This document shows positions 16,843-64,000 of a DNA stretch of 64,000 nt, in pieces (the stretch's first letter is position 1; every line of letters begins with the position of its first letter). The stretch lies in assembly GCF_058153355.1 (NCBI RefSeq), contig NZ_CM177019.1. One strand, written 5' to 3'. The position numbers were made by a program, and so were the translations under genes. Below the pieces are notes generated by a model that was given only the letters and a program-made list of their open reading frames with translations, was not told the origin of the DNA and searched no databases.

Positions 16843-17094
<252 letters not shown>

Positions 17095-17098
17095 CTAA

Positions 17099-19456
<2,358 letters not shown>

Positions 19457-21699: not shown

Positions 21700-21768
21700 A
21701 TAATTGCATTATGCCCCGTACTTTTGTACGGGGTTTGTACTCTGTATTCGTAACCAAGGGGTCAGCTC

Positions 21769-22299
21769 GTGACAACTATAGTAAGCGTACGCCGTAACGG
21801 CCATGTGGTCATCGCTGGTGATGGTCAGGCCACGTTGGGCAATACCGTAATGAAAGGTAACGTGAAAAAGGTCCGCCGTCTGTACAACGACAAAGTCATC
21901 GCGGGCTTTGCGGGCGGTACTGCGGATGCTTTTACGCTGTTCGAACTGTTTGAACGTAAACTGGAAATGCATCAGGGCCATCTGGTCAAAGCCGCCGTTG
22001 AACTGGCAAAAGACTGGCGTACCGATCGCATGTTACGCAAACTTGAAGCACTGCTGGCAGTCGCGGATGAAACCGCTTCACTGATCATCACCGGTAACGG
22101 TGACGTGGTGCAGCCAGAAAACGATCTTATTGCTATCGGCTCCGGCGGCCCTTACGCCCAGGCTGCGGCGCGCGCGCTGTTAGAAAACACTGAACTAAGC
22201 GCCCGTGAAATTGCTGAAAAGGCGTTGGATATTGCAGGCGACATTTGCATCTATACCAACCATTTCCACACCATCGAAGAATTAAGCTACAAAGCGTAA
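21769..22299 (+). CDS. hslV: ATP-dependent protease subunit HslV
   Basis: 176-aa ORF; the T2 (N-terminal Thr nucleophile) follows the initiator: [20 protein letters not shown]. Confidence 0.95.
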
Positions 22300-36411: not shown

Positions 36412-36510
36412 TGCCATATGCGGCGCGAACGCCTTATACGGCCTACAAAAGTTTGCAAATTCAATAAATTGCAGAATTCATGTAGGCCTGATAAGCGAAG
36501 CGCATCAGGC
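36412..36510. repeat. REP palindromic units, pfkA-sbp intergenic
   Basis: CCATATGCGGCGCGAACGCCTTATACGGCCTACA and TGTAGGCCTGATAAGCGAAGCGCATCAGGC. Confidence 0.8.
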
Positions 36511-41489: not shown

Positions 41490-41576
<87 letters not shown>

Positions 41577-60918: not shown

Positions 60919-61752
60919 TTAATTACTCAAACGCTGCGGATGGGTATAAACCGTTGCCCGACCCGGCTTACAAAAGCCCACCAGCGTCAAATTACAGCGC
61001 TCAGCCACTTCTACGGCAAGCGTGGTCGCGGCAGACACCGCAAACAAAATTTCTACGCCGCACATCGCTGACTTTTGCACCATTTCATAACTGGCACGAC
61101 TGGAAACCAGCACCGCACCTTGCTGCCAGCTTTCCCCTTCTTGTGACCGGCGGCCTAACAGTTTATCCAGCGCCACATGGCGACCCACGTCTTCATGCCC
61201 GCCTACCAGTTCGCCAGATGGCAACATCCAGGCAGCGGCGTGAGTACAACCAGTCAGTTGCCCCACTGGCTGGAAATCATTGAGATGGCGTAATGCATCA
61301 TCCAGTTTGTTGAGATCAAATGTCTGAGTGAACGGCAGCGGCTGCACCGGTTTACCGATGTCATTAAGTTGCTCCACGCCGCACACGCCACATCCCGTAC
61401 GTCCCGCCAGTGCCCGACGACGCTCCTTCAACCCCATAAAGCGGCGGCTGGAAAGCTCAATTTGCACTTCCAGACCATTACAGGAAGGAACGACATCCAT
61501 ACCGAAGATATCGCGCGGACTTTCGATAATCCCCTCGGAAAGCGAAAAACCGAGCGCAAAGTATTCAAGGTCTTTGGGCGACGCCATCATCACCACATGC
61601 GAAATGCCGTTGTAGACCAGCGCAACGGGAACCTCTTCCGCCACCTCATCTAACCGTGGGTGTTGTAAATCGTCACGCCGCCATAACTCAATTTGACGAA
61701 CACCTGTGACATTTATCACATTTTTGATTTCTTTTTGCTGTGTTTTTTTCAC
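60919..61752 (-). CDS. fdhD: formate dehydrogenase accessory sulfurtransferase FdhD
   Basis: 277-aa [31 protein letters not shown]. Confidence 0.93.
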
Positions 61753-61945: not shown

Positions 61946-64000
61946 ATGCAGGTCAGCAGAAGGCAGTTCTTTAAGATCTGCGCTGGCGGTATGGCAGGCA
62001 CCACGGCAGCGGCACTGGGTTTTGCACCCAGCGTAGCACTCGCGGAAACCCGGCAGTATAAACTGCTGCGCACCCGCGAAACCCGTAATACCTGCACCTA
62101 TTGTTCCGTAGGCTGTGGGCTGTTGATGTACAGCCTCGGTGACGGAGCAAAAAACGCCAAAGCATCTATCTTCCATATCGAAGGTGACCCGGATCACCCG
62201 GTCAACCGCGGTGCACTTTGTCCCAAAGGCGCTGGCCTGGTGGATTTCATCCACTCCGAAAGCCGTCTGAAGTTTCCGGAATACCGTGCCCCTGGTTCTG
62301 ATAAATGGCAGCAAATCAGTTGGGAAGAGGCGTTTGATCGCATTGCCAAACTGATGAAAGAAGACCGCGATGCTAACTACATTGCGCAAAACGCCGAAGG
62401 CGTGACTGTTAACCGCTGGCTCTCCACCGGGATGCTGTGTGCTTCCGCGTCGAGTAACGAAACCGGCTATTTAACGCAAAAATTCTCCCGCGCGCTGGGT
62501 ATGCTCGCGGTCGACAACCAGGCGCGTGTCTGACACGGACCAACGGTAGCAAGTCTTGCTCCAACATTTGGTCGCGGTGCGATGACCAACCACTGGGTCG
62601 ACATCAAGAACGCCAACCTCGTCGTGGTGATGGGCGGTAACGCCGCTGAAGCTCACCCGGTCGGGTTCCGCTGGGCGATGGAAGCCAAAATTCACAACGG
62701 CGCGAAGCTGATTGTGATCGATCCTCGCTTTACGCGTACGGCGGCGGTGGCTGACTACTATGCCCCTATTCGTTCCGGTACTGACATTGCTTTCCTGTCA
62801 GGCGTATTGCTGTACCTGCTGAACAATGAAAAATTCAACCGCGAATACACCGAAGCCTATACCAACGCCAGCCTGATCGTGCGTGAGGATTACGGCTTTG
62901 AAGATGGCCTGTTCACCGGCTACGACGCGGAAAAACGCAAGTACGATAAATCCTCCTGGACCTACGAGCTGGACGAAAACGGCTTCGCCAAACGCGATAC
63001 CACGCTGCAACATCCGCGCTGCGTGTGGAACTTGCTGAAACAGCACGTTTCCCGTTATACGCCAGATGTGGTTGAAAACATCTGTGGCACGCCGAAAGAC
63101 GCGTTCCTGAAAGTCTGCGAATACATCGCAGAGACCAGTGCTCACGATAAAACTGCCTCGTTCCTTTACGCGCTCGGCTGGACGCAACACTCCGTTGGTG
63201 CGCAGAACATTCGTACGATGGCGATGATCCAGCTACTGCTCGGCAATATGGGGATGGCAGGCGGCGGCGTTAACGCCCTGCGCGGTCACTCCAACATTCA
63301 GGGGCTGACGGACCTGGGGCTGCTGTCGCAGAGCCTGCCAGGTTACATGACGCTGCCAAGCGAGAAGCAGACCGATCTGCAAACCTACCTTGCCGCCAAC
63401 ACGCCAAAACCACTGCTGGAAGGCCAGGTTAACTACTGGGGCAATTACCCGAAATTCTTCGTCTCCATGATGAAGGCCTTCTTTGGTGATAAAGCGACGG
63501 CAGAAAACAGCTGGGGCTTTGACTGGTTGCCGAAGTGGGATAAAGGCTACGACGTCCTGCAATACTTCGAGATGATGAAAGAGGGCAAGGTCAATGGCTA
63601 TATCTGCCAGGGCTTTAACCCTGTTGCCTCATTCCCGAACAAAAACAAAGTGATCGGTTGTCTGTCGAAACTGAAGTTCCTCGTCACTATCGACCCGCTG
63701 AACACTGAAACCTCTAACTTCTGGCAGAACCACGGTGAGCTGAACGAAGTGGACTCGTCGAAGATCCAGACCGAAGTGTTCCGTCTGCCATCGACCTGCT
63801 TCGCGGAAGAGAACGGTTCAATCGTTAACTCCGGTCGCTGGTTGCAGTGGCACTGGAAAGGTGCGGACGCCCCAGGGATTGCGCTGACTGATGGCGAGAT
63901 CCTCTCCGGTATCTTCCTGCGCTTGCGCAAGATGTACGCCGAACAGGGTGGCGCGAACCCGGACCAGGTGCTGAACATGACCTGGAACTACGCCATCCCG
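61946..64000 (+). CDS. fdoG: formate dehydrogenase-O major subunit (selenoprotein), 3'-truncated by window end
   Basis: Tat signal MQVSRRQFFKICAGGMAGTTAAALG; N-terminal Fe-S Cys cluster (CTYCSVGCG). In-frame TGA at 62531-62533, after which the frame continues without stops (HGPTVASLAPTFGRGAMTNHW...) to the window end. Confidence 0.92.
62531..62533 (+). other. selenocysteine (UGA recoding) codon of fdoG
   Basis: In-frame TGA at the conserved Sec position (codon 196), with conserved molybdopterin-enzyme sequence on both sides. Confidence 0.85.
62534..62573 (+). other. putative SECIS stem-loop downstream of the Sec codon
   Basis: Outer arms GACCAA/TTGGTC and inner arms AGCA/TGCT can pair in the roughly 40 nt immediately 3' of the UGA, where bacterial SECIS elements lie; the fold was not computed. 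Confidence 0.45.

Follow-up and report, generated by a model that had tools for sequence, protein, structure and literature searches.

The question raised by this locus, near the end of the 64-kb stretch of DNA that was analysed as a whole (the window), is whether a TGA within a long coding frame ends translation there or is decoded as selenocysteine (Sec) with the aid of a hairpin in the mRNA just 3′ of it. An earlier, sequence-only reading had favored the latter. It named the gene fdoG, placed an in-frame TGA at codon 196 with the frame open from there to the window end, and pointed to a stem-loop of about 40 nt at the position of a bacterial SECIS. With regard to the frame, it was right. 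Counted from the ATG at 61946, the TGA is codon 196 and the sole stop in the 684 codons to the window end, the frame being open for a further 488 codons after it. A mechanical list of open reading frames closes the frame at 62533, yielding a 195-aa product. Coordinates of the features considered are collected in the table.

Table. Features at and around the fdoG recoding site, in window coordinates
Feature	Coordinates	Strand	Basis or remark
fdhD, sulfurtransferase needed for Fdh activity	60919..61752	-	TIGR00129, 340 bits vs cutoff 141; divergent from fdoG
fdoG, catalytic (alpha) subunit of formate dehydrogenase-O	61946..64000	+	codons 1-684 of 1016 inside the window; gene cut by window end
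Twin-arginine (Tat) signal peptide, MQVSRRQFFKICAGGMAGTTAAALGFAPSVALA	61946..62044	+	SRRQFFK motif read from translation; cleavage point predicted
Near-total synonymous-site invariance block, codons 195-217, fdoG and fdnG	62528..62596	+	Enterobacterales synonymous diversity
Rfam SECIS_3 (RF01989) match, full extent	62528..62586	+	59 nt, model 1-59 of 59
UGA codon 196, read as selenocysteine (predicted Mo-ligand residue)	62531..62533	+	in-frame TGA; 1KQF alignment; conservation
SECIS stem-loop: lower helix, internal loop, apical helix	62533..62578	+	MFE -14.6 kcal/mol
Apical SelB-binding mini-helix (predicted), GGUAGCAAGUCUUGCUCC	62545..62562	+	G15-C32; begins 11 nt after UGA

The identity of the gene needs settling since E. 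coli K-12 has two close candidates. Over the part inside the window, the frame matches K-12 FdoG (b3894) at 683 of 684 residues (99.9%), with 98.1% nucleotide identity; the single substitution is at residue 483, where the window has A and K-12 has T, and the synonymous differences are scattered. Residue identity to K-12 FdnG, over the same part, is only 79%. The NCBIfam equivalog model for the formate dehydrogenase-N alpha subunit, TIGR01553, is matched with a score of 1070 bits (cutoff 814) despite the gene being cut by the window end. The divergent arrangement with fdhD is the synteny also present in K-12 and in RefSeq, and fdoH, fdoI and fdhE, which follow the gene in matching E. coli genomes, would lie beyond the end of the window. 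Identity and synteny together thus identify the gene at 61946 as fdoG and not fdnG, in agreement with the name first proposed for it. A side aspect is that PGAP labels the fdo locus 'fdnG / formate dehydrogenase-N subunit alpha' despite its fdoH, fdoI and fdhE neighbors (e.g. NZ_CP027579.1, locus L001, 3147-6197), and does so in all the E. coli matches listed.

Features surrounding the coding sequence merit brief mention. Residues 1-33 of the window FdoG align with the FdnG chain of 1KQF, and the twin-arginine motif SRRQFFK at the N-terminus fits the periplasmic location reported for Fdh-O (PMC3160892). The segment 61800-64000 is matched at 99% identity or above in 18 of 5433 matching E. coli records, most being at 95-99%, and with so few close matches the window derives from an E. 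coli lineage that has been sequenced less often than others. A candidate RNA thermometer in the fdoG 5′ UTR (Rfam FdoG1_thermometer, RF02778; 61777-61975, + strand) was rejected as its score of 32 bits is below the gathering threshold of 50; the match is partial, with the Shine-Dalgarno and start-codon part alone aligning well. Elsewhere in the window, other Rfam matches at gathering level are naRNA4 at 41494-41571 (+, 87.4 bits), the ES036 sRNA at 36448-36489 (+, 48.2 bits), the ClpQY (hslVU) promoter element at 21714-21771 (+, 63.6 bits) and an L31 ribosomal-protein leader at 17062-17114 (-, 60.1 bits).

That E. coli Fdh-O is a selenoprotein has been known since the 1990s, and a full-length FdoG of ~110 kDa, labelled with 75Se, has been reported for this organism. 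In an alignment with 1KQF_A, the alpha subunit in the solved structure of Fdh-N, the window TGA falls on residue 196, a non-standard one, and so an in-frame UGA is present where a known selenoprotein family has its catalytic Sec or Cys; the FdoG/FdnG alignment by which the selenoprotein identity was to be checked therefore bears it out. Each of the three Fdh enzymes of E. coli is a selenoprotein, and Fdh-N and Fdh-O activity is missing from a selC mutant (PMC3160892). When a TGA-free recoded strain was constructed, the internal TGAs of fdhF, fdoG and fdnG were purposely kept, that of fdoG being treated as a Sec codon (PMC11903333). [quoted passage not shown]

Is there a structure of the appropriate type 3′ of the TGA? 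A search of the whole window with Rfam models yielded a sole SECIS, a full-length match to SECIS_3 with a covariance-model score of 84.3 bits against a gathering threshold of 63 (E = 2.7e-20 / 1.4e-18). The ~40-nt stem-loop proposed from sequence inspection is thereby upheld. The SECIS_2 model (RF01988), which represents the fdhF type, gave 28.1 bits at this site against its gathering threshold of 70, so that the window element, though its mechanism is as in SECIS_2, is of a different sequence sub-family. The minimum free energy fold places the stem-loop immediately 3′ of the UGA and inside coding sequence, pairing positions 3-48 (numbered from the U of the UGA), with pair probabilities in the lower stem of 0.84-0.96 in a 90-nt context. 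The SECIS_3 consensus pairing instead spans 62534-62576, and the lower stem could be in either register, there being few variants and these not deciding the matter. The extent originally given, 62531-62573, took in the codon and the contiguous lower helix but stopped short of the outer pairs, which reach 62576-62578.

Folding energy cannot carry the claim for the hairpin as its stability relative to shuffled sequences is not above chance (z = -1.03, with 25 of 200 shuffles folding as well). That the hairpin is nevertheless beyond chance rests on the covariance-model score, nucleotide invariance in Enterobacterales and association with TGA but not Cys codons. The position of its determinants is also pertinent. 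Liu et al. 1998 is reportedly the primary paper on the minimal SECIS. The determinants used here are those given in a review, namely a stem-loop at a distance of 11 nt from the UGA, with U17 bulged and G23 and U24 in its loop, U17 and G23 being the contacts to SelB (PMC8659212). Read from the window sequence, G15 is at 62545, the bulged U17 at 62547 and the loop G23-U24 at 62553-62554, the offsets of U17, G23 and U24 from the UGA being identical to those in K-12 fdhF. Comparison with the fdhF SECIS, the check originally proposed for the hairpin, consequently favors it. Given all of these aspects together with the conservation described below, the site is, with a probability of roughly 97%, the selenocysteine recoding site of E. 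coli fdoG, with UGA196 being decoded as Sec and a bacterial SECIS directly downstream. This particular site is already known, as a member of Rfam SECIS_3.

Conservation was assessed by scanning one genome per species, which yielded 80 Enterobacterales loci of both fdoG-type and fdnG-type paralogues, ranging from Escherichia to Photorhabdus, Yersinia, Proteus, Edwardsiella, Pantoea and Arsenophonus. Close relatives with a Cys codon at the homologous position, against which the sequence-only reading had set its proposal, did not appear: TGA is kept at this codon in all 80, and the few Cys-type homologues, of metagenomic origin and considered below, are without the hairpin. The 59-mer matching SECIS_3 is identical in 73 of the 80 loci, which makes a test for covariation within Enterobacterales impossible. 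Within E. coli itself, the 95-nt region of the site was found in 5425 of 5426 complete genomes. Mean per-codon synonymous diversity across the Enterobacterales loci is 0.021 inside codons 195-217 and 0.442 outside. Twenty consecutive degenerate codons in the block are at or below 0.10, a level shared by 3.5% of codons outside, and the lowest 20-codon window elsewhere averages 0.338 compared with 0.016 in the block. Nucleotide identity to the window is likewise 99.7% in the block and 81.1% outside it. Since flanking residues are equally conserved at the protein level, the constraint on the block acts at the level of the RNA. A single Enterobacterales locus, in Arsenophonus nasoniae (locus L069, 1740-1830), has a changed residue beside the Sec, HAP for HGP (CAU GCG); the change alters the 5′ arm of the lower stem and favors a shifted register, with the TGA and the apical helix unchanged.

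More distant relatives, in which there is variation to be utilized, were sought in metagenomes with a degenerate DNA pattern in which the site could be TGA, TGC or TGT, and position 18 any base but A so that the invariant enterobacterial type would be passed over. The 120 matches comprise 110 with TGA and 10 with Cys codons. G23-U24 is present in all 94 distinct Sec-type 54-mers, and 68 of the 94 have an apical helix that is perfect in one or other of three registers. The Cys-type is a small sample of nine distinct sequences, of which only three have GU at positions 23-24 and none a perfect apical helix. The element is thus present with UGA and absent from homologues with a Cys codon. Some Sec-type metagenomic sequences (26 of the 94 distinct, about a quarter; from loci L085-L204) have an apical helix of the form GGUCUCAAGUUUGGGACC in which U17 is paired with A30 and G23-U24 is kept, a U17-A30-paired sub-type of SECIS that does without the 'essential' bulged U of the E. 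coli model.

For structure counts an ungapped alignment of 99 Sec-type sequences was used. When the window structure is imposed on it, 81.3% of cells are paired, a value that none of 500 shuffles reaches (74.4 +/- 0.5 after shuffling), though the counting favors this structure as it is the window's own and the window is one of the sequences. Sliding the partners gives at most 55.1% paired. The covariation score, at 0.162 against 0.073 for shuffled alignments, was also not reached in any of 500. Pairing in the apical helix stands at 88%, and three of its seven pairs change on both sides. Pairs 18-30, 19-29 and 21-27 switch among G-C, C-G, A-U and U-G, and so the helix is backed by compensatory changes among homologues. 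An RNAalifold consensus from the same alignment is weak (-1.89 kcal/mol), partly different, and recovers part of the apical helix. The weakness is attributable to relatives using at least three helix registers, and is the reason for counting pairs on the window's own structure.

A different type of issue is the extent of what is constrained. Synonymous invariance in the Enterobacterales (79 loci) runs ~15-20 nt past the last SECIS pair, through 62577-62596 and codons 212-216 (GCG AUG ACC AAC CAC), where diversity is 0.02-0.10, the block ending at codon 216/217 (62593-62596). One possible explanation is that in Enterobacteriaceae the functional element extends beyond the textbook SECIS, with a further 3′ module (~62577-62596) that aids recoding efficiency, mRNA refolding or some other function. 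That codons beyond the last hairpin pair should be invariant at all, to a degree seen in 3.5% of outside codons, is in its favor, and the Rfam SECIS_3 model also has 10 conserved unpaired nucleotides at its 3′ end. Against it, no convincing structure was found, positions 48 and 51 vary freely in distant metagenomic relatives, and a preference for C-ending codons (ACC, AAC, CAC) could explain part of the effect. The odds are therefore against such a module, though not heavily so. The more specific proposal, that the constrained RNA element at the Enterobacterales fdoG/fdnG Sec site is ~69 nt (62528-62596) and that an undescribed 3′ module in it tunes recoding efficiency, is a shade more doubtful again.

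Two structures were considered for the region and rejected. Pairing of the 3′ arm UUGGUC (38-43) with a downstream GACCAA (54-59) reaches a probability of at most 0.02 in the ensemble, and distant relatives do not preserve it. For a second hairpin at 62576-62605 (-9.2 kcal/mol), z is -0.93 and no pair changes on both sides; its 97% pairing in Enterobacterales comes solely from invariant sites or pyrimidine-for-pyrimidine changes opposite G, and its pair 48-73 is broken in most metagenomic relatives. Were a 3′ module to be real, its role might lie in how the SECIS refolds between ribosomes, in contacts made at the mRNA entrance, or in dealing with frequent termination. What is mildly new, in a quantitative sense, is that in Enterobacterales both paralogues show next to no nucleotide change over the SECIS region and that the frozen block overshoots the hairpin.

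Much less credible is the possibility that the downstream invariance reflects constraint on the protein plus codon bias, with no RNA element being involved and read-through being independent of a SECIS. The encoded peptide HGPTVASLAPTFGRGAMTNHW is itself 100% conserved and the z-score of the MFE fold is weak, both as would be expected on that basis, but the codons of equally conserved residues on either side, 182-194 and 218-240, have synonymous diversities of 0.3-0.7 compared with 0.00-0.10 in the block. Also, Cys-codon homologues with similar peptides are without the helix and mostly without G23-U24, and there are compensatory pair changes in distant Sec-type relatives. The chance that protein-level selection suffices is accordingly very slight.

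The weakest contention, that the TGA is a genuine stop and fdoG either a pseudogene or two genes of 195 aa and about 800 aa, can be set aside even though a mechanical ORF caller stops at 62533, the 195-aa product has stand-alone entries in protein catalogues and Ribo-seq density drops ~100-fold after the site (PMC5714196), for the TGA is at the same codon in K-12 and in 80 of 80 Enterobacterales loci of both paralogues, 488 open codons follow it in a protein 99.9% identical to that of K-12, its position is that of the catalytic residue in 1KQF, and Fdh-O activity needs selC (PMC3160892).

Databases do bear traces of such a misreading. The warning that a gene caller would split the gene or call it a pseudogene was apt for naive ORF callers: the exact 195-aa fragment (61946-62530) is present as a stand-alone entry in public protein collections from at least 1000 contigs, its 90%-identity cluster has 3382 members, and REPARATION, a Ribo-seq annotation tool, predicted two ORFs at fdoG (PMC5714196). 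It did not apply to RefSeq and K-12, where a single 3051-nt CDS is annotated. Some members of the 195-aa cluster, among them certain Cronobacter malonaticus and Hafnia alvei entries, are misnamed 'sulfate ABC transporter substrate-binding protein', and wrong names on such fragments can spread to other records. From a practical perspective, what annotation of the site needs is one selenoprotein CDS with a translational exception, and not a pseudogene or two ORFs. For biology there is nothing new in this, Fdh-O being a known selenoprotein and its SECIS a curated Rfam family.

Returning to selenocysteine decoding, the codon, frame, gene identity, family match, in-register determinants, conservation, covariation and TGA-specific association are demonstrated here. 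By analogy with the E. coli literature, SelB binding, selenium dependence and competition with termination would be expected to apply also. In mechanistic terms, UGA196 would be decoded as selenocysteine with the mRNA just downstream folding into the SECIS hairpin, and its apical mini-helix would be bound by a specialised elongation factor, SelB, through the C-terminal domain of that protein. SelB-GTP together with Sec-tRNA(Sec) would be tethered at the mRNA entrance of the ribosome as the UGA enters the A site, and would there compete with release factor 2 (RF2). Once inserted, the Sec would coordinate the active-site molybdenum of formate dehydrogenase-O, a periplasmic enzyme. Recoding is inefficient. 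With Ribo-seq density ~100-fold lower after the fdoG Sec site and RNA-seq ~3-fold lower (PMC5714196), termination was a major outcome under the conditions involved, and on the Ribo-seq figure the main one, ahead of Sec insertion.

Parallels with known systems are close. The recoding region of K-12 fdoG (b3894), with its Sec196 and SECIS, is identical to that of the window over 66 nt, and there is no functional difference. For the SECIS of K-12 fdnG, which serves Fdh-N and is of the same Rfam family, SECIS_3, 65 of the 66 nt around the UGA are identical, and the Sec of FdnG has the same residue number, 196 (structure 1KQF). However, fdnG is a paralogue at a different locus, and its product has 79% identity to the part of the protein within the window. 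Regulation of fdnG also differs from that of fdoG, being nitrate-inducible and anaerobic.

The fdhF SECIS, which serves Fdh-H and represents SECIS_2, has in common with the window element the layout of a UGA, an 11-nt spacer, and a mini-helix with a bulged U17 and a loop G23-U24 (PMC8659212). The helix sequences differ, the fdhF mini-helix being of 17 nt with the loop GGUC, whereas that of the window is of 18 nt with AGCAA/UUGCU and the loop GUC, and the Sec is residue 140 in the fdhF product and 196 in the window FdoG. Sec-type FdnG/FdhA homologues from soil and other metagenomes share with the window the context UGA-HGP(T/S)V, a G23-U24 that is invariant and, at positions 15-32, an apical helix, but with G-C or C-G pairs where the window has A-U and, in about a quarter, with U17 unbulged.
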